From IMG/VR virus record IMGVR_UViG_3300020195_000069, positions 1 through 40,348 of that record: a DNA stretch of 40,348 nucleotides; one strand, given 5' to 3'. The translations under genes and the position numbers were made by a program. The notes under the pieces are model-generated. The model saw only the letters and a list, made by a program, of their open reading frames with translations, was not told the origin of the DNA and ran no database searches. This DNA comes from a virus. Lineage: Duplodnaviria > Caudoviricetes. Below, piece after piece: positions 17,457 through 27,640 of the stretch; the first letter of the stretch is position 1, and each line of letters starts with the position of its first letter.

Positions 17457-18695
17457 TTAGTAGCTGATCGAGTGGAGGATGCCGTTACGTGTTGGCGCAT
17501 GCCAAACAACTTCACCCCGGAAGAGCACGTCGATGATGTACTGGTAGCCGGTGGTGTTACGCACCGTGTAGAACTCTTTGCCTTCTGGCGTCTTGTGCTT
17601 CTTAACGCCACCGTTCGAGTAGATCTTCACCGAGCCCTTGTCGAAGGCGACAATCTCGGTGTCATCCCACTCTTGAACTGCACAGATCGACAGGGATTCT
17701 CCTGTGGTCGTGGAGGCGATGGTTGTCTCCCACCAGCCGAACTCATTCCTCTTCGGATCGGAGACCACCTTGAATGCACCCTTGGTGATCTGCTGGCTCT
17801 TCATGCAAGAGCCCCAATGCTTGAAGCTCATGACCAGCTTGTCGGCATTGCCGCGAGCCTTCTTACGCACGTTGACGTAGAAGTCGAAGAGCTTCTCCAG
17901 GATGTTCGACGCCGTGACGTCCGAGCCCGAGAGGTTGATCGCCTGAAGGTAGGGGTAGTCGAGTTTAGTCTTGCCGTGGAGAGTCGCTGCTCCGCCGTTG
18001 GCCGAAGACAGAAGGGCTGAACGCATCGACGTGAAGGTTCCGGACTCACCACCTGGGTGGTAGAACTTAGCTCCTTGAGCGATGGTGTAAGCCGACAGGT
18101 CGGCTGCTGCTCCACCGCGAGAGAGAGAGAAGGTCGCTTTGTCCAAGTTGAGGTCAATCGCTTTCACGTAGACAGAGACAGAACCGGCTGAGTCCTTAAG
18201 GACCAGCTTCTGACCCTTGTTGAGCCGCTCAATGCGGTTCAGCGTATAGATGCCGCTTGCCGAAGAAGCTTCTGCCGTAACAGTCGCAACCGACGGGCCA
18301 GCCATCATCTGGTGGGAGAGAGCTTCCTTGAAGAACGTCATGCCTGGGCCAACGGTACGGTCCATGACGTCCAAGAATGTGGACTCAGGGATCTTGCCGT
18401 CATGCTCAGCCAAGTCTTCTTGGTTGAAGATTAGCGAGTGAGCCGCTTTCACCTGAGTCGTCACTTCACCGCGAACGAAGTCAGCTTCGGCGATGTCGTT
18501 AGACGCGGTCAGCGAGTTGAAGGAGATCGAGGTAGGTGGGTTGCCTTCGAAGGGAACCGGCATTGTGCCGCCCTTCCAGTTTTGAACATGCTCGATTTCC
18601 GAGAAGAACCACATGCGCTTGACCAGTTCTTCGGTCAAGAGCTTGCCGGTGATGTATTCGTTCGACATCGAGGCAAAGGTACGTGCCAACGTCAT
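17457..18695 (-). CDS. Major capsid protein
   Basis: 412 aa; follows portal and scaffold; GGAG RBS; followed by a hairpin; C-terminal ...PTRNGILHSI typical of HK97-fold capsid ends. Confidence 0.75.
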   Translation of the reverse strand: MTLARTFASMSNEYITGKLLTEELVKRMWFFSEIEHVQNWKGGTMPVPFEGNPPTSISFNSLTASNDIAEADFVRGEVTTQVKAAHSLIFNQEDLAEHDGKIPESTFLDVMDRTVGPGMTFFKEALSHQMMAGPSVATVTAEASSASGIYTLNRIERLNKGQKLVLKDSAGSVSVYVKAIDLNLDKATFSLSRGGAAADLSAYTIAQGAKFYHPGGESGTFTSMRSALLSSANGGAATLHGKTKLDYPYLQAINLSGSDVTASNILEKLFDFYVNVRKKARGNADKLVMSFKHWGSCMKSQQITKGAFKVVSDPKRNEFGWWETTIASTTTGESLSICAVQEWDDTEIVAFDKGSVKIYSNGGVKKHKTPEGKEFYTVRNTTGYQYIIDVLFRGEVVWHAPTRNGILHSISY

Positions 18696-19876: not shown

Positions 19877-22012
19877 CTACATGGCCATTGGTGGAGGCAT
19901 GCTACCGGGTCCACCGGGTGGAAGGGGTAGCGTTCCCCCTCCTGGCATGCCGCCGTTCATCGTCATCCGTTGATCTGCCAAATCTGCCTGCACATTTGGA
20001 CTTAGAGAGCCCAGTTGAGAGAGTGAGGCTCCTTGTGCCTCAAGCCTTTTCTTCAGCCAGCCAAGAGAGTTCTGAGGGAACATGGCTCTTTTGGCAGAGG
20101 CACCAGGGTTGTTTGGATCTTCTGTGTACATGTCGCATTTGACGCCTGGACCATCCATGGGGATGTACTCAGACTGCTCAGCCAGGATCTTCTGTTGCTG
20201 CTGAGCTTGAAGCTCGACGTACTCTTGAATGCGTCTGTCATAGAGTTGTTGAATCTGAAGATCGAGGAAGCGGTAGTCTGGCTTCCTGATCCGACTCTCA
20301 AGCTTCTTAAGCATCTTGGCTGGATTGTCGGCTTTGCCGATCGGGGGATATTGACCCCTCTCCATGGCGAGCATGTCGTTTTTGACGTTCTCGTCGTCGA
20401 TGGTGAAGTCGGCAAACGCTTCTTTGGCATTGGCCCAAGGCATCTGCTGGAGGACTTTACCGAGTTCGTCTTTGTCGAGGTTCTTGCCGACGTACTGGAG
20501 GACGTTCTGGAAGGTGATCTGACGACCAAGCATGCTGTCGATGGTGTCGGATCTCGGCTCCAGGCGAATCTGGTAACGAAACGGAGTCGTCTTCCTGAAC
20601 TCTTCGAGGTTGATGAGCTCGCCTTTGCCGATAGCCGGGATCACAGCCGAGTCCGGCATGTAGTTCTTGGACATCTCGAGGAGAGTGGTGACGAAGTCGA
20701 TTAGGAACTGCTCAAACTTCTCAGCGTAGAGGCCATAGCGTTGTTGCTGGCTCGCTGCTCTGTAGAGGAGCGTCATCGGATCGAGCTGAGTCATCTTCTC
20801 TTCGGTCAGCTCGCTGAGCATGACGACCGAATACATCTCAGCGATCTGGGCTTGGATGTAGGCCAGGAACTGACTGCCGTCCCTACCGGGCAGTACCTCA
20901 GGGGTTCTACCCTGGTAGGAGATACCCCTAACGCCAGGCAGGAGAGCGCCTTGTTCAAGCTTGCTCCCCTTCTGATAGAGGATCTTGTCATCACCAATCG
21001 TAATTTGGTGCATGGCGAGTTGGGAACTAGCGCGGTTGATCTCGGCAATATAGGGACGGATCACTTTGATGATCGAACGTGCCCTAGCCGAGGTTGGAAA
21101 CTCGTCGAAGCCTCCCCAAAGGATCGGGAAGATGCCGAAGGGTAGAGGGCCCTCTTCGAGCACCGTGTCACAGGCCATGATGTAGAAGTAGCCTTCTGGA
21201 TACTGCCTACATGGACGGAAGTAGAATTCCTTTATCAGGACTTCGTCTTGCGTCTTCTTGTAGCTCGATCGCATGGGCTCGAAGACGACGAACTCTTCTT
21301 TGCCACTGCCCGAGAGCGACTTGATCTTCTCTTCGTCGTCTTTGTAGCGCTCGACCAGCTTCTTCTTTTGAACGGTCTTCCTAACGCCTAGCCAAGGAGA
21401 GTCCCGCATCGACTTGGAGCAAGAATCCCGAAAGAGGTTGGCTGGGAAGATGTCTTCCACCTCGAACTTACCTTCGAAGACCGGCTTCTCTTCGTCAGGA
21501 AGAGGCTCTCCAGTCGTTTGGTCGAAGAGTGGCTGACCGTTTTCGTCAGCCGCTTGCTCGTTGCCGATGATCCGGCCGCTGTCAGGGTTCCACCTGAGGA
21601 ACACACAGAGCTCGCCGACAGCCGAGAAGTCCAGTGCCCACTGACGGTAGCGTTCTTTCAAACGGTAGTCGACCTTGTGCTGGGTGTAGACCGCTTGGTT
21701 CAGATCAGCGTCTTTTTGGTCCTGAAGGTCTGTGTCGTTCTGAGGCATACAGACGACTCCAGGCGCATTGGCCAGGATCGATGTGCCGTAGTGACGAACG
21801 ACTTTATGGACATGGTTCTTGACCAGTCGGAGCTTCAGCGATTCAGACGCTCTGGCCGACTTATCGCGGTAGTCGTTGTCACGATCTTTTTTGGAGTAGT
21901 GGTCACCGGCCAGGAGCATGACGTTGGAGCGCATCTCAGTGAAGACTTCGCGGTCTACCGCTTCGCCGTCGTCGTAAAGATTGTTCAGCTCCGAAACGCT
22001 ATGTTTCTTCAT
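19877..22012 (-). CDS. Portal protein
   Basis: 711 aa downstream of TerL; LVKNHV...P...D-KDA N-terminal pattern, GPLPFGIFP motif and Pro/Gln-rich tail, as in P22-like portals. Confidence 0.8.
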   Translation of the reverse strand: MKKHSVSELNNLYDDGEAVDREVFTEMRSNVMLLAGDHYSKKDRDNDYRDKSARASESLKLRLVKNHVHKVVRHYGTSILANAPGVVCMPQNDTDLQDQKDADLNQAVYTQHKVDYRLKERYRQWALDFSAVGELCVFLRWNPDSGRIIGNEQAADENGQPLFDQTTGEPLPDEEKPVFEGKFEVEDIFPANLFRDSCSKSMRDSPWLGVRKTVQKKKLVERYKDDEEKIKSLSGSGKEEFVVFEPMRSSYKKTQDEVLIKEFYFRPCRQYPEGYFYIMACDTVLEEGPLPFGIFPILWGGFDEFPTSARARSIIKVIRPYIAEINRASSQLAMHQITIGDDKILYQKGSKLEQGALLPGVRGISYQGRTPEVLPGRDGSQFLAYIQAQIAEMYSVVMLSELTEEKMTQLDPMTLLYRAASQQQRYGLYAEKFEQFLIDFVTTLLEMSKNYMPDSAVIPAIGKGELINLEEFRKTTPFRYQIRLEPRSDTIDSMLGRQITFQNVLQYVGKNLDKDELGKVLQQMPWANAKEAFADFTIDDENVKNDMLAMERGQYPPIGKADNPAKMLKKLESRIRKPDYRFLDLQIQQLYDRRIQEYVELQAQQQQKILAEQSEYIPMDGPGVKCDMYTEDPNNPGASAKRAMFPQNSLGWLKKRLEAQGASLSQLGSLSPNVQADLADQRMTMNGGMPGGGTLPLPPGGPGSMPPPMAM

Positions 22013-22445
22013 CCATCCCCGCCAAACCTAGGAGGTGCTGATCTATCAGCCGTGTCTCGAAGGCGACGGGATCATCGAGAAGCTGCTGCTCCTCGGCGAA
22101 TTTCTCCACAAGGTCTCTAGGCACCCTGGGAGGACTCTGGCCCTCGCCTATCGGTGCTGAGTCCCTAGCGGAGGAGTCAGCGTAGTCTGAATTATCGGGG
22201 AGCGACTCTACCTGGCGTGGAGAGCCTGAATAAAAGCGGACATCAAGGTCTCCGATTTTCAATCGAGAGACGCCGCATTCACTTGCTAGTTTGATTAGCT
22301 TATAGATTGACGTCTGAGTAAGAGTCTTGTCAAGCTCAGGTGCCTTCCATCTGCTCGTTCCAGAAGGCGATTTCTTCTGTGAAGCCCCAATCTTCTCGTT
22401 GTTCTTCGTCGTCGAGAGATCCTCTTTGCTTAAGTTCCTCGGCAT
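21999..22445 (-). CDS. Hypothetical protein between TerL and portal
   Basis: Fills the gap between the genes. The ATG start implies a 110-nt overlap with terL, so the start is uncertain. Confidence 0.55.
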   Translation of the reverse strand: MPRNLSKEDLSTTKNNEKIGASQKKSPSGTSRWKAPELDKTLTQTSIYKLIKLASECGVSRLKIGDLDVRFYSGSPRQVESLPDNSDYADSSARDSAPIGEGQSPPRVPRDLVEKFAEEQQLLDDPVAFETRLIDQHLLGLAGMDEET

Positions 22446-25011
22446 GTTGCTCTTCCTCTGTTAGGGCTCTCCGCACTTTCTTCTGGGTGGAGTCTGGGGC
22501 TTTCCCTTGGATCATTGTCCAGTCCCAGGGGATGTCGACGGTGGCATAGCGGACGCAATCACAGTTTGCGACCAAGATGCCGTTGGCAAAGTACTCGTGG
22601 TGCTCACCTACCGTCAGGTTGAAGACTGGCTCAGTCCTTCCTGAACCTTTGACGCTGAGAGCATTGGGAAGAGCAGTTTGCGGTCTTTGCGTACTTGTTC
22701 GCCGAGAATTCGCTCCGACAAAATTTACACATACGTTTCTCTTCATCCAGACCCGCATGTCGTCTCCAAGAAGACTTGCAGGCGTTTGAGCAGAAGCGAG
22801 ACTTGCTGTGCATGACCTTGGTACTGAAAGGCTTGCTGCAATGTTCGCAAAGGAGGTTCTGAACTTGAGCATTAGCCCAAATCTTCTTGCCGTTTGCTGA
22901 ATGCTGAGCGAAGCCATCTGGAGAACTGTGCCAAGGAGCCGCCAAAGGGGATGCTGGATAGCGCCTGAATTTGATGCCGTTGAAGGTGACGACTTCGGCC
23001 TTAGACTTTTGACGTAGTTCCAAAGTCTCAACTCCTCAAACTGATCTTGCTTGTCGAACGAGCCGATTGAGCGGAAGGAAGTGCCATCGAAGAAGCGGTG
23101 GTTCTCGGTGCTTCGGACGTGCCTTTTCCCACACCGATAGAGCCTAGTAAATCCTTTCCGGACCGATTTGGCAGTGACTGGACGCCAGCCAAAGCGAGTC
23201 AAAACGCGGTCTCCAACAAGGACGTCTTCTATCTTCCTTAGGCCGGTTTCCGTAGCAATGAGGGTGTCACCTGAGAAGCACGCATCATCGACAGCGGATC
23301 TTTTGTCCGTATCTCGCATCAAGGTCAGCATCTCTTCGCCGACTTTCCTGATCTCAGGGGTATCGAAGAGAAAGAGCATGTCGTTTTGGAAGAGGGTGTT
23401 GACCACCTCTTCGCCTCTCGCATGGTTCTTATCGGCTTCGACGAAGCTCTCGCTGTTTCTATCCGAGATGATGCGGAAGTCTTTCGAGTGGTAGTCGTAC
23501 TTCTCGACGGTCATCTGGTCTGAGCTACGTTCGACGACATAAGAGTTGTAGACGTCGCCAGCAGTCGTCTGCTCGTCGTCTAAGCGCCTGCCTTTGTAGA
23601 CGTAGCCCAGACGGAAATCAGGTCTTACAGCAACGAAGTAGAAGGCTGCCGGGTGGTTCTTTCTCTTTTTCTTTTCACCGCTATCACCTGAGCCAACATC
23701 GACGGCTGAGTAGCGAAACCAGTCAGCCGGAATGGTCTTTGGCTCCACATAGTGCTTTGTCGGATCAAAGGCGTGGTACTTCCTTCCAGATTCAGGAGCG
23801 AACTTGCCCTCAATCCGGCGAAGTTTCTGAGCCTCACTGGAACATGCTTTTTCCTGCTTTTGAATCTCTTCTTCGGTGTAGAGACCTGGAGAGCCGTCAT
23901 CAAAGACGAGGCAATCACGCTTACCGATCTGCATCTTCAAGGCATCGGTAAACATCTCGGAGGCACCTTCACCTTCGAGAGCTCTCCACCACATAGGCTG
24001 GTTAAGAGTCGCAGTGAAAGCAGCAGAGAAGTAGCCACCAGTCGCAGAGAGACGCTGGTAGGCCTCATCCCAGAACTTCACCGGCATCTCTTCGTCACAG
24101 TTATGGACCAAGATGCCATGAGCAAAGTAGGTGTGCGAGTCAGCTACAGTGAGGTTGATGACCTCGACTTTGGACTCTAAGGGTATGACGGCATTCGACA
24201 GAACATGTACGTCTGTTCCAAGAACTGTAAGTGAGACGTCAGTATTCCTCAACTCCTCGAATGGTATCCAACCCCTGTTCTCTGTCCAAAATGGATGATT
24301 GCCAGTAGCGGTTACCGTCTCTCCATTCGAGAAGGATCGACTGATAACGTCAGCTTGGCGGCGCATGACATTCTCAACCCTCTGTGGCCCAGACGAACTC
24401 ATTACGAGATCGCCAACCTTTAGACTCTCTATTGGAGCAGGACCGTTTGGTGTGCTTACCGGCGTTCCAGCAGGAAAACACCCCATGTCCCAGACAGTCG
24501 CTGACTGGACGTTGATCGTCGACTTAGCGAAGGCCAGGAACTGAAGATAGACGCCTGAGTTGAAGATGATGCCCTTCACCTCATGCCATCTACCGTTCTT
24601 CTCTTTGCCGTCTACCTTCCAGCCGTATTGCCTCGAATTCTTGAAGTCACCCTGTGGGAGCCAACGCAGCCACTTGATATTGAACTCACGGTCAATCGTC
24701 AGCTCGTCGGTCATCCAGTACCAGAAAAGGTCCGGCTTCCGTCCTGGCCAGAGTGTTTCCCAGAGTTCTAGGTTGGTTGACCTGTTTATCTTGTCCCACA
24801 GATGGACCACCGACTTTCCGACCTGATTCGCACAAGAGTAGAGGCGCATAGGGACAGCGCTCTCGAAGAAAGCACGCTGCCAGAAGTACCACTTGTGCCC
24901 ATAGAGGAATGGAAGCCCATCTTTGAACTCCTCTTGCCTCAGAATAAGTGTCTTCCGCTTCTCAGCCAGAAGACGCATCTCAGATGTAGACAGTGGTCTC
25001 TGGGATTTCAC
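22336..25011 (-). CDS. terL: Terminase large subunit containing two inteins (891-aa precursor, about 525 aa spliced)
   Basis: Walker A-like ANQVGKS; Walker B (C)DEE; RNase H-like AVDVG and DDA(C)DCVRY; two Hint-domain insertions. Confidence 0.92.
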   Translation of the reverse strand: MKSQRPLSTSEMRLLAEKRKTLILRQEEFKDGLPFLYGHKWYFWQRAFFESAVPMRLYSCANQVGKSVVHLWDKINRSTNLELWETLWPGRKPDLFWYWMTDELTIDREFNIKWLRWLPQGDFKNSRQYGWKVDGKEKNGRWHEVKGIIFNSGVYLQFLAFAKSTINVQSATVWDMGCFPAGTPVSTPNGPAPIESLKVGDLVMSSSGPQRVENVMRRQADVISRSFSNGETVTATGNHPFWTENRGWIPFEELRNTDVSLTVLGTDVHVLSNAVIPLESKVEVINLTVADSHTYFAHGILVHNCDEEMPVKFWDEAYQRLSATGGYFSAAFTATLNQPMWWRALEGEGASEMFTDALKMQIGKRDCLVFDDGSPGLYTEEEIQKQEKACSSEAQKLRRIEGKFAPESGRKYHAFDPTKHYVEPKTIPADWFRYSAVDVGSGDSGEKKKRKNHPAAFYFVAVRPDFRLGYVYKGRRLDDEQTTAGDVYNSYVVERSSDQMTVEKYDYHSKDFRIISDRNSESFVEADKNHARGEEVVNTLFQNDMLFLFDTPEIRKVGEEMLTLMRDTDKRSAVDDACFSGDTLIATETGLRKIEDVLVGDRVLTRFGWRPVTAKSVRKGFTRLYRCGKRHVRSTENHRFFDGTSFRSIGSFDKQDQFEELRLWNYVKSLRPKSSPSTASNSGAIQHPLWRLLGTVLQMASLSIQQTARRFGLMLKFRTSFANIAASLSVPRSCTASLASAQTPASLLGDDMRVWMKRNVCVNFVGANSRRTSTQRPQTALPNALSVKGSGRTEPVFNLTVGEHHEYFANGILVANCDCVRYATVDIPWDWTMIQGKAPDSTQKKVRRALTEEEQHAEELKQRGSLDDEEQREDWGFTEEIAFWNEQMEGT
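22564..23280 (-). mobile_element. Intein 2 (239 aa) in the TerL nuclease domain
   Basis: Block A CFSGDTLI, block B STENHRF, block F/G PVFNLTVGEHHEYFANGILVAN, Cys+1. Splits DDA|CDCVRY. Penultimate residue is Ala, not His. Confidence 0.9.
22631..23023 (-). CDS. Out-of-frame gene nested in intein 2: double Cys4 zinc-finger protein, probably HNH-endonuclease-derived
   Basis: TTG start with GAGGAG 8 nt upstream; CEHC...FCSNAC and CKFC...NCSSQC repeats; ORF ends coincide with the intein endonuclease slot. Confidence 0.75.
   Translation of the reverse strand: MELRQKSKAEVVTFNGIKFRRYPASPLAAPWHSSPDGFAQHSANGKKIWANAQVQNLLCEHCSKPFSTKVMHSKSRFCSNACKSSWRRHAGLDEEKRMCKFCRSEFSANKYAKTANCSSQCSQRQRFRKD
24100..24480 (-). 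mobile_element. Mini-intein 1 (127 aa) at the TerL Walker B motif
   Basis: CFPAGTPV...ATGNHPF...VINLTVADSHTYFAHGILVHN|CDEE: canonical blocks A, B, F and G, His-Asn end, Cys+1. Confidence 0.92.
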
Positions 25012-25226
25012 TCCCCAATGCCTTGCTTGATTAGATCATCAACGAAGAACCAAACCCTCTTCCTCGATTCAGGCTTGAGAGAGCGAAGCTGGTCTCGGAT
25101 GTCTCTGATGGTGTCTAGCTCTAAGCATAAATGGTCGATGACCATCTCTTGTGTGTCTTGGCATTCACGTTCCATGAACTCACCTTCCTCTTTGTAGAAA
25201 GTCTTGGCGTTCTCGAGCCAGGTCAC
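25008..25226 (-). CDS. Hypothetical protein (72 aa)
   Basis: GTGA overlaps with both neighbours. Confidence 0.6.
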   Translation of the reverse strand: MTWLENAKTFYKEEGEFMERECQDTQEMVIDHLCLELDTIRDIRDQLRSLKPESRKRVWFFVDDLIKQGIGE

Positions 25227-25984
25227 GTTTCTTTGTCCTCAGGGATGATGGTGCCGTCGATGATCGCGCCTTCTTCTAGCTCAGGCATCGTGTTGGCTAC
25301 CGTCTCGATCCGACCAAGCATCGCCTTGATCTCATCCATCTCAGAAGAGATCGACCTAGATCCTTGGTCAGTGAGTGAGATGTTCACGTTCTTTGATTGG
25401 ATCTCTTGCCTTTGAACAACAGCACCATGCAGACGGTTCTGAAGACCCTCAACAATGGCCCTGATCTCTTTCACAAGAGAGACGTTCGTCCGCTTCTCGC
25501 AGTGAAGCTCACCAGTCTTGTCTTTCCAGTAACGCTTCTCGACCAAAGGGAGCTTCAAGACCTTGCGAAGCTTCTTGTGACCCAACTCTAGGAGTTCTTG
25601 CCAGACAAGGATCTCAGCCGTTGGCGGGGTAATCACCCAAGCCAAGATCTCTGGACGTCCCACTACCTGCTTTTGCCAGTAGCTCATAGAGCAGACGCCG
25701 AACTGAATGTTCGATAGCACCATGTGGCTTTGCTTCACACGCTGACAACGCCTGAACTCATTCCAGAAGCTGATCTTCACCCTCCTCTGCACATCGTCAG
25801 GACGACGAAGGAGCTCATTCTCAGTCTTCTCCAGCAGCTCAGGTGGAAGCTCTTCAACCGCCCGCTGAGCCGCTGGACAAGAATTGAGAAGACGAAAGAG
25901 CGAGTAAGACCCCTCCTTCGAGAAAAGATCAACCTCTTCATCAGGCATCACCGGATCTACCGGAGCAATAGACGTCAAACTCAC
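25223..25984 (-). CDS. Putative terminase small subunit
   Basis: 253 aa helical protein two genes upstream of TerL, with a C-terminal beta-strand then acidic tail. Assignment from position only. Confidence 0.45.
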   Translation of the reverse strand: MSLTSIAPVDPVMPDEEVDLFSKEGSYSLFRLLNSCPAAQRAVEELPPELLEKTENELLRRPDDVQRRVKISFWNEFRRCQRVKQSHMVLSNIQFGVCSMSYWQKQVVGRPEILAWVITPPTAEILVWQELLELGHKKLRKVLKLPLVEKRYWKDKTGELHCEKRTNVSLVKEIRAIVEGLQNRLHGAVVQRQEIQSKNVNISLTDQGSRSISSEMDEIKAMLGRIETVANTMPELEEGAIIDGTIIPEDKET

Positions 25985-26472: not shown

Positions 26473-27135
26473 TCAATGACTCACTGACTCTGCGAATAAC
26501 CTCAGCCGTTAGAAAGCCGTAACCAAGACCATGAGCCACTAACACTCGCTCCTTACGGAGCACTGAGATCATTCCCTCTGACTCTGAAGTGAAGAGGAGA
26601 GAAAGGCTCTCCTTCTCGCATCTCTCTTGGAGAGAGAAAAACTCGTAACCAAAGAAAGTGAAGGCAGAGAGAGTTGATGGGGAAGTCATTGAGTGAGGCT
26701 TTGATTTTAAGAAAGTAAGGGGAGAGGGGAGGTTTGAGATTTGGTGTGAGCGAAAATCCACAGAGGTAGGATTCATACTCACTGTCCAAGTTCACCCTCA
26801 CCCCCCTATGTCTTTGAAATTACTAGCTTAGAGATCTAGCACCAGCCTAGCTGACTGCCTTATCTCTAAGCATCTCTATTGTGTGAGCAAGTACAGAGAG
26901 TTATGTCATCCAATCACTAGGTTATCAACATAGTGTAACTTAAACACTCACTCTCTATACACGCTAGACGAGGTATAACTATCTAACCTGATTAGGTAAC
27001 CAGGTATTGGGTAGTGACAGTCTACCTGGGAGGGGCCTTGGTTTTTTACCAAGTCCCATTTATTTTCGGCTGACTTGCTGAATCTACTTGACTTCCTCTC
27101 AAACCCTTCTCTCTCAACCCTTTCAAGCCTCTCAA

Positions 27136-27243
27136 CCTTCCTCTCCTCTCCTCTCCTCTCCTCTCCCTTCCCTTCCTTCCTTCCTTCCTCTCTCTCTTCT
27201 CTCTCTTCTCTCTCTCTCTCTCTATCCTCCTCTCTCTCTCTCC
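27136..27243 (+). repeat. Polypyrimidine tract of (CTCTC)n, (CCTT)n and (CT)n
   Basis: 108 nt with a single purine (A27224). Confidence 0.95.
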
Positions 27244-27640
27244 GAGCTCTACCCATGCCTCTCTAGCCCTAGTCCTTCAAGCCTTCCGGCGAGGATCCTA
27301 AGCGAGAGCCAACAGGTCTAATCAGACCATTGCATAGAGAGGCATTACAGTCCGTCAAGGTCCGTCACTAGCATGAGCCTATATATTACAGCTACTTGTC
27401 AATAGGTACCAAAGACTATTGAGTGATCTCAGTTAGTTAACCTAACTGTCCTCTCAAGTACGTCTACTACCTAGTCACCTGTCTAACCCTTAGACACCTA
27501 CTGCCTCATGCCTTTCAGCCTATCTCTTTGTATTCATTACTCTCTGCCTAAGCGTCTCAACTGGCCTGCTCAATGCAATGGCTTAGGCATCTACTCAAGC
27601 CGAGTAGACAGACCAAACCTCAACCGAGAGAGCCAAGCCA

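Follow-up and report, generated by a model that had tools for sequence, protein, structure and literature searches.

A core-deleted HNH endonuclease remnant in the shifted reading frame of a phage terminase intein

Homing endonuclease genes placed out of frame within phage inteins are a known layout. Gosselin, Arsenault and Gogarten (bioRxiv 10.1101/2025.01.02.630785) describe actinobacteriophage inteins whose homing endonuclease, of an endonuclease VII-like type, is read in frame 3, and predict a decay to mini and split inteins as well as a shift into frame. According to a 2015 account (PMC4422536), all annotated brucellaphages have an out-of-frame HNH encoded by an intein of their terminase. 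In fractured genes, a free-standing endonuclease separates the two halves of a split intein (Dassa et al. 2009, PMC2677866), and the ShiLan domain of a phage methylase is an HNH encoded out of frame (Arsenault et al. 2025, PMC11855218). The locus presented here is intein 2 of the terL-like gene (terminase large subunit) in a viral DNA stretch of 40,348 nucleotides (nt) (Duplodnaviria; Caudoviricetes; IMG/VR record IMGVR_UViG_3300020195_000069, positions 1 to 40,348), which as a whole is called the window. The endonuclease slot of this intein contains a nested open reading frame (ORF) in another frame. The locus is genuinely dual-coding and represents a decayed variant of an already known type of element. 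The original prediction, made from the letters of the DNA alone, considered the architecture perhaps non-standard; it was already in print in 2015 (PMC4422536) and 2025 (bioRxiv 10.1101/2025.01.02.630785). The out-of-frame layout being known, the locus is no discovery of principle.

The nested ORF is identified by its sequence as the remnant of an HNH_3 homing endonuclease with C-terminal zinc fingers, the catalytic core of which has been deleted in frame. The ORF and its parts are the following (coordinates of the window; amino acids, aa).

22631..23023, minus strand: nested ORF, 130 aa, HNH_3-family endonuclease without catalytic core (homology, alignment, PHROG HNH families)
23032..23037, minus strand: Shine-Dalgarno-like (SD) GAGGAG, 8 nt before the TTG, Glu-Glu in the TerL frame
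22949..23023, minus strand: retained N-terminal segment (VTFNGIKFRRYP), aligned to 11 full-length HNH proteins at their N-termini
22943..22954, minus strand: in-frame deletion junction, approximate, about 91-92 codons lost (alignment gap RRYPAS / PLAAPWHSS; spanned by contigs of several sequencing runs)
22874..22948, minus strand: retained WHxS helix region (alignment, model)
22778..22849, minus strand: zinc-finger-like repeat 1 (C59, C62, C78, C82), Cys invariant in the alignment, putatively metal-binding
22661..22729, minus strand: zinc-finger-like repeat 2 (C99, C102, C117, C121), Cys invariant in the alignment, putatively metal-binding

The start lies 257 nt past the Cys1 codon of intein 2 (family quartiles 257-275), i.e., in the +2 (-1) frame of the same strand. 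A TGA at 23038-23036 shuts the +2 frame just upstream, and the stop TGA of the ORF (22633-22631) overlaps Thr-Glu of RTEPVFNLTV. The duplex of GAGGAG with the anti-SD has an energy of -8.8 kcal/mol. The original prediction had described an ORF of 130 aa at 23023-22631 in the -1/+2 frame, with its TTG, the GAGGAG 8 nt upstream read as Glu-Glu in TerL, two CxxC-x(13-15)-CSxxC repeats and a TGA in the codons before block F, and every one of these elements was recovered in the sequence.

All 11 matches (11/11) in the protein search with the nested ORF were HNH_3 endonucleases of 204-226 aa (E 1e-30 to 2e-17, 38-53% identity), and for this reason the ORF is taken as a real gene remnant and not as a chance frame. 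In the alignment with these 11 proteins, the approximately 91-92 residues absent from the nested ORF hold the whole LH...HHxD...NN...NL core. A wider search produced 1101 representative relatives, and among the best 150 the majority are about 200-230 aa long. The ORF was assigned to PHROG HNH families; against Pfam nothing exceeded the cut-off and the HNH core (PF13392) was not present, the same core being found in P0003, in L002 and in the intein-1 cargo of L177. Its model is confident over residues 31-130, with a mean predicted local distance difference test score (pLDDT) of 84, and a Foldseek search of the model against PDB gave no match at E <= 0.001, with weak zinc-finger rows only. Under synonymous resampling of the intein codons, a +2 open run of at least 134 codons arose by chance in 0.9% of 3000 trials, and when the nested ORF was resampled the intein frame remained open across it in 2.7% of 5000 trials. 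Thus, the cargo proposed to be overprinted in the endonuclease slot is a real gene by homology, but it is not intact, since its HNH core is deleted. The window copy is predicted to be unable to cut DNA or to mobilise intein 2.

The host intein and its gene comprise the following features.

22336..25011, minus strand: terL-like gene, 891 aa with two inteins (ORF, PHROG matches, gene order, motifs)
22564..23280, minus strand: intein 2 (239 aa), inside the TerL C-terminal nuclease motif (Pfam Hint_2; alignment with 25 related inteins; AlphaFold Hint fold)
22561..22563, minus strand: +1 Cys of the C-extein after intein 2 (sequence)
22639..23040, minus strand: in-frame passenger peptide of intein 2 across the nested gene, without domain (pLDDT <50 at residues 99-118 and 144-197)

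Class 1 inteins are marked by an N-terminal Cys or Ser, TxxH in block B, a C-terminal Asn and a +1 Cys, Ser or Thr. Intein 2, which starts with CFSGDT (23280) and ends with VAN (22564) followed by Cys, has the marks of this cis-splicing class, namely C1, T58-E-N-H61, N239 and the +1 Cys. Its AlphaFold model adopts a Hint fold (pLDDT 76-97 for residues 1-90 and 74-96 for residues 201-240) with a low-confidence insert, and the top Foldseek matches of the model are inteins and intein-like domains, with a template modelling (TM) score of 0.86 to the gp41-1 intein. The tblastn search of intein 2 against cultured phages returned no match. Intein 2 is predicted to splice, judging from its placement directly ahead of the final conserved Asp in an essential terminase. 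The terL frame is open through all 891 codons, without a stop after the N-terminal intein part (IntN). The passenger peptide had 0 Pfam matches above the cut-off and 0 PHROG matches and is rich in S, L, A, R and T, in agreement with the motif-less, Ser/Thr/Ala/Arg-rich insert that had been predicted; it was the alternate frame, with 11/11 HNH_3 matches, in which homologues were found. The ORF as a whole matches PHROG terminase large subunit families including phrog_2 (E 2e-12), a signal to which the inteins may contribute in part, and the extein pieces alone had no match among the family profiles. The gene lies upstream of a portal gene (phrog_156), and DDA/CDCVRY of the window TerL (written here with a slash) fits the D-H-x-x-D-A-x-R-Y end of related terminases.

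Relatives were gathered by ORF, HNH-alignment and intein-alignment searches. From the large searches the best 80 each of at least 346, 399, 131 and 332 confirmed matches were kept, and the smaller ones gave 2, 3 and 10 loci. Because only the best matches were taken, the counts describe a sample biased toward this HNH family and not natural frequencies. At 134 of the 198 distinct HNH loci, the HNH is encoded in the +2 frame of a contiguous intein; the others are 27 split or broken inteins, 23 free-standing genes and 14 unclassed loci, and no contiguous intein among the 198 has the HNH in frame 0 or +1. The recurrence of shifted-frame HNH genes in homologous inteins, by which the original prediction could be judged, is therefore seen in 134/198 loci. 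The related inteins listed occupy several neighbouring insertion sites around the final conserved Asp in the nuclease domain of the terminase.

Within an earlier collection of 152 loci, the intein frame was stop-free in 105 of the 109 loci with IntN and the C-terminal part (IntC) in the same frame. Codon resampling would give 5.9 stops in this frame, and the matching frame of free-standing HNH genes has a mean of 4.7 stops, with 3/17 genes lacking any. The pooled ratio of nonsynonymous to synonymous rates (dN/dS) over 18 disjoint pairs, a frame-specific measure which also bears on the original prediction, was 0.22 for the HNH frame versus 1.33 for the intein frame. The codon position of highest variability is intein position 3 within the splicing domain and HNH position 3 within the insert. 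The value above 1 was not read as positive selection in the intein frame, since the overlap itself yields such a value.

A start codon is found at the matching place in 184 of the 189 nested genes. An SD of -5 kcal/mol or stronger precedes 72/184 nested genes versus 61/467 controls, and the motif TGnTAnnnT occurs 5-8 nt upstream in 27/184 versus 0/467, the latter comparison being confounded by the Gly-Asp-Ile codons of the intein. This extended -10 element is suggestive of leaderless transcripts from within the intein in part of the family (27/184). On the basis of these comparisons, the intact nested element is a real, selected gene with its own start. For the window, the proposed translation of a free protein from an internal ribosome-binding site gains support from the family (starts in 184/189, SD enrichment, purifying selection), and for the window copy it stays a prediction. 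A consensus scan upstream of its TTG detected no sigma-70-like promoter, and no -10 motif is present 5-8 nt ahead of the TTG. In L014, L018, L036, L091 and L160, a TGnTATAAT-like extended -10 is located about 7 nt ahead of the nested ATG.

Several other arrangements were observed among the relatives. Free-standing members (L001, L009, L011, L020 and others) are in 13/23 cases located directly behind an intein-free terL end, beside the motif that inteins occupy. Naturally split terminase inteins with the HNH gene between the halves were found in Lactobacillus phage CL2 (L173), Brochothrix phage BL3 (L172), L053, L158, L167 and others; the records of CL2 and BL3 do not annotate the short IntC-TerL tail gene. 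In 25 of the 27 split or broken loci, the frame of the C-terminal half relative to the HNH is that of contiguous inteins. Four cultured phages, TJE1 (L168), Highwayman (L170), phiCDHM19 (L171) and LS06-2018-MD07 (L174), have an intact out-of-frame HNH within terL, unannotated. Three database proteins (P0070, P0055 and P0090) have this HNH family in frame with a terminase intein; P0070 is complete and the other two stop after the zinc fingers; the in-frame state may be due to real frame shifts or to sequence errors. Terminase inteins at the ATPase site (L315:652-1635 and L333:427-1593) have another cargo in the +1 frame, with the zinc fingers first and the HNH last.

The decay of the cargo can be followed in 212 distinct contiguous inteins, which include 199 with an HNH core (its motif being intact in 187), 4 core-less inteins, 7 minis and 2 with other cargo. 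The four core-less inteins retain zinc-finger remnants and measure 239 aa in the window, 230 in L273, 175 in L313 and 145 in L328. In detail, L273:1779-2132 is a +2 ORF of 118 aa in the 230-aa intein, with the core deleted at almost the endpoints of the window (RYPAS/PLAAPWH in the window, RYPD/AKKWH in L273); P0134 is a third, similar protein. L273 is 38% identical to the window and belongs to a separate clade, hence the two deletions are considered independent. Conserved columns are retained in 26/30 cases in the window and 24/30 in L273, the full-length median being 28 (quartiles 26-29), and this retention, a property of the aligned sequences, neither shows erosion nor rules it out. More deletion stages, from a single zinc-finger remnant to mini-inteins of 125-135 aa, are represented by L313:1501-2025, L328:1201-1635, L269, L284, L288 and L306.

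Intein 1 of the same gene exists in more than one allele, and its features in the window are two.

24100..24480, minus strand: intein 1, 127-aa mini allele, Walker B site (Pfam, allele comparison)
24229..24236, minus strand: intein 1 deletion junction, 456 nt, GTC microhomology (allele comparison)

The full allele of 279 aa, present in L177-L179, has an intact HNH_3 gene of 177 aa in the +2 frame (in L177, intein 1 at 588-1424 and the HNH ORF at 851-1381), and the mini allele is shorter by 456 nt. Both alleles are contained in run X1, at depths of 18.6 and 7.5, and an empty allele is found in run X8. The empty allele (window 24097-24482) reads D-M-G-A-D, with Ala in place of the +1 Cys of intein-bearing alleles; the +1 nucleophile thus appears to travel with intein 1. 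Six substitutions are clustered just past the junction of the mini allele. An ancestral state of the mini allele was ruled out, as its +2 frame still spells the last CSxxC of the nuclease. Neither empty nor full alleles of intein 2 were found in 8 runs (X11 and X12 partial) or in 3 other assemblies. No intein-free relative of this terminase was found among 13 candidates from viral contigs (0/13), and hence the empty intein 2 site was not directly observed. In the homing cycle, a nuclease is kept while empty targets remain and is lost once the intein is fixed. Three alleles of intein 1 beside an exclusively nuclease-dead intein 2 fit this cycle, and the two inteins of one terL look like different stages of it in one natural population.

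On the established ground of homology, frame, deletion, two open frames and family-wide selection on the shifted frame, the nested ORF is read as the remnant of an HNH homing endonuclease in a terminase intein, likely a stage of decay toward a mini-intein, with a probability of roughly 80%. The ORF lacks exactly the core of its 11 full-length HNH_3 homologues, and this supports the decay. We infer translation and homing of the intact nested HNH. In intact members, TerL would be made with the intein and its junk passenger, and the intein would splice both out. The HNH would be made as a free protein from the internal start, either SD-led or leaderless via the internal -10 element, and would nick intein-free terL alleles, whereby the intein would spread by homing. 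In the window copy, intein 2 would have become fixed in the population, leaving the nuclease without a target, and the core would have been lost by a deletion whose length in bases is divisible by three, tolerated because it preserves the TerL frame. A deletion that spares the TerL frame automatically keeps the +2 frame open, which accounts for the clean ORF of 130 aa. The zinc-finger peptide may still be translated, and it probably has no selected function.

Several points weigh against this reading. The remnant of the window has no clear erosion, as all 8 Cys, a strong SD and the 26/30 conserved columns are kept. The unrelated phage L273 lost its core at nearly the same two endpoints. No close full-length parent of the nested ORF was found, the best identity being 50-53%. 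The fixation of intein 2 rests on contigs, where rare variants drop out. Finally, the penultimate residue of intein 2 is Ala and not His; in related inteins this residue varies (H, S, K, A, L, R or Q).

Some of these points are shared by the alternative that survives best, itself unlikely, according to which the core-deleted product is retained as a nuclease-dead zinc-finger DNA-binding protein, for example one that represses terL or the intein-1 nuclease, or that shields the target site from competing homing nucleases. In its favor speak the nearly identical endpoints of two independent deletions (window and L273) together with the similar P0134, the keeping of all Cys and start signals, and the confident model over residues 31-130. 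However, both frames stay open after any in-frame deletion without selection, core-less forms are rare (4/212), and the endpoints of L313 and L328 are quite different. Moreover, with 26 and 24 of 30 conserved columns retained against a median of 28, the two remnants rank low within the family, and a search for proteins of 71-228 aa found no short homologue. In its general form, i.e., that overprinted intein nucleases repeatedly become expressed nuclease-dead zinc-finger regulators or shields by deletion of the same segment, resulting in a domesticated gene in an intein in an essential gene, the proposal is equally doubtful.

The nested HNH family could also act as a terminase cofactor in DNA packaging instead of a homing nuclease. 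The location of 13/23 free-standing relatives directly behind the terL end motif agrees with such a role, and a functional link with the terminase is raised in PMC4422536. Still, the phage survives without the nuclease of intein 2 and, in the window's allele, without that of intein 1 as well, and the many neighbouring insertion sites in divergent terminases together with empty alleles are those of a homing element, which makes a packaging role very improbable. Slightly less probable again is a -1 ribosomal frameshift into the +2 frame, which would produce a TerL-IntN-zinc-finger fusion rather than a free protein. The +2 frame equals -1, and in-frame IntN-HNH fusions exist among database proteins (P0055 and P0090), but a stop is placed 5 codons upstream of the TTG, no X-XXY-YYZ slippery site was seen by eye before the conserved start, and in 184/189 relatives the nested gene has a start codon of its own here.

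An assembly error behind the frame offset or the deletion, or an ORF open by chance, is hardly credible even for a metagenome-derived window with a run (X8) lacking cover at 22878-22999, given that the locus is identical in L177-L179, that five runs span the junction and that the same frame recurs in 134 distinct loci. In these three other assemblies, intein 2 has zero nucleotide differences from the window, and because of this identity an assembly artefact, which would have undermined the original prediction, was dismissed. The deletion junction is spanned without differences by contigs of X9 and X10, runs not flagged as possible sources of the window, and also in the possible source runs X1, X6 and X7. 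All these runs may stem from one sampling campaign. For the junction, X8 (no cover at the above positions) and X11 and X12, which miss it, were not used as evidence.

The neighbouring genes were labeled from position only, as likely major capsid (17457-18695), a 148-aa ORF overlapping the terL end (21999-22445) and likely small terminase (25223-25984). These three had no significant Pfam match, and the two checked against PHROGs had none there either; the head module of the window is divergent. Low-complexity, purine-rich DNA (GA repeats, translated as R/E/G) occupies 26948-27256, near the switch between the minus- and plus-strand gene blocks.

In the literature, neither the HNH_3/zinc-finger +2-frame family nor its core-deleted forms were found described, although subscription papers and the supplements of Gosselin et al. 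may cover them. What the locus adds to the known layout is a decay series with the independent, near-identical deletion of L273 and a population snapshot of two inteins. The HNH_3/zinc-finger element abounds in phage terminases, and the GenBank records of TJE1, Highwayman and phiCDHM19 miss it.

Compared with the inteins of Gosselin et al. (bioRxiv 10.1101/2025.01.02.630785), the window similarly has a contiguous intein, a same-strand cargo of frame 3 (+2) confined to the slot and an unstructured in-frame passenger. On the other hand, its cargo is an HNH_3 with C-terminal zinc fingers and not endonuclease VII-like, the core is deleted, and the HNH_3 family is far more widespread in the present sample. 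The brucellaphage terL intein (PMC4422536) shares the out-of-frame HNH gene inside a terminase intein, but that gene is intact and of another HNH family. The family of the window matched 0/23 Brucella phage records, and the +1-frame cargo of L315, with the HNH at its C-terminus, is 71% identical to the brucellaphage HNH. As in the fractured genes of Dassa et al. (2009, PMC2677866), the 3' end of the endonuclease overlaps the C-terminal intein part, and the same kind of split or break is seen at 27/198 loci of the window's HNH family; unlike them, the intein of the window is contiguous, without a stop after IntN. The cargo described by Dassa et al. was GIY-YIG or Vsr-like. The ShiLan domain (PMC11855218) likewise hides an HNH with zinc fingers in frame 3 of a stop-free insert, whereas it has no intein, its host gene is a non-essential methylase and its HNH is intact.

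The closest cultured counterparts are Tetrasphaera phage TJE1, Acinetobacter phage Highwayman, Clostridium phage phiCDHM19 and Rhodobacteraceae phage LS06-2018-MD07, which have the same HNH family in the +2 frame of the same terL region with the intein frame open. Unlike the window, they keep the HNH core, and GenBank annotates the terminase only. Cultured phages are tractable systems for the expression and homing of an out-of-frame intein nuclease, an experiment absent from the available parts of the cited papers. Conclusively, one nuclease family presents the states predicted by the models of Dassa et al. and Gosselin et al.: free-standing behind terL, split, contiguous out of frame, in frame (P0070), core-deleted and mini.

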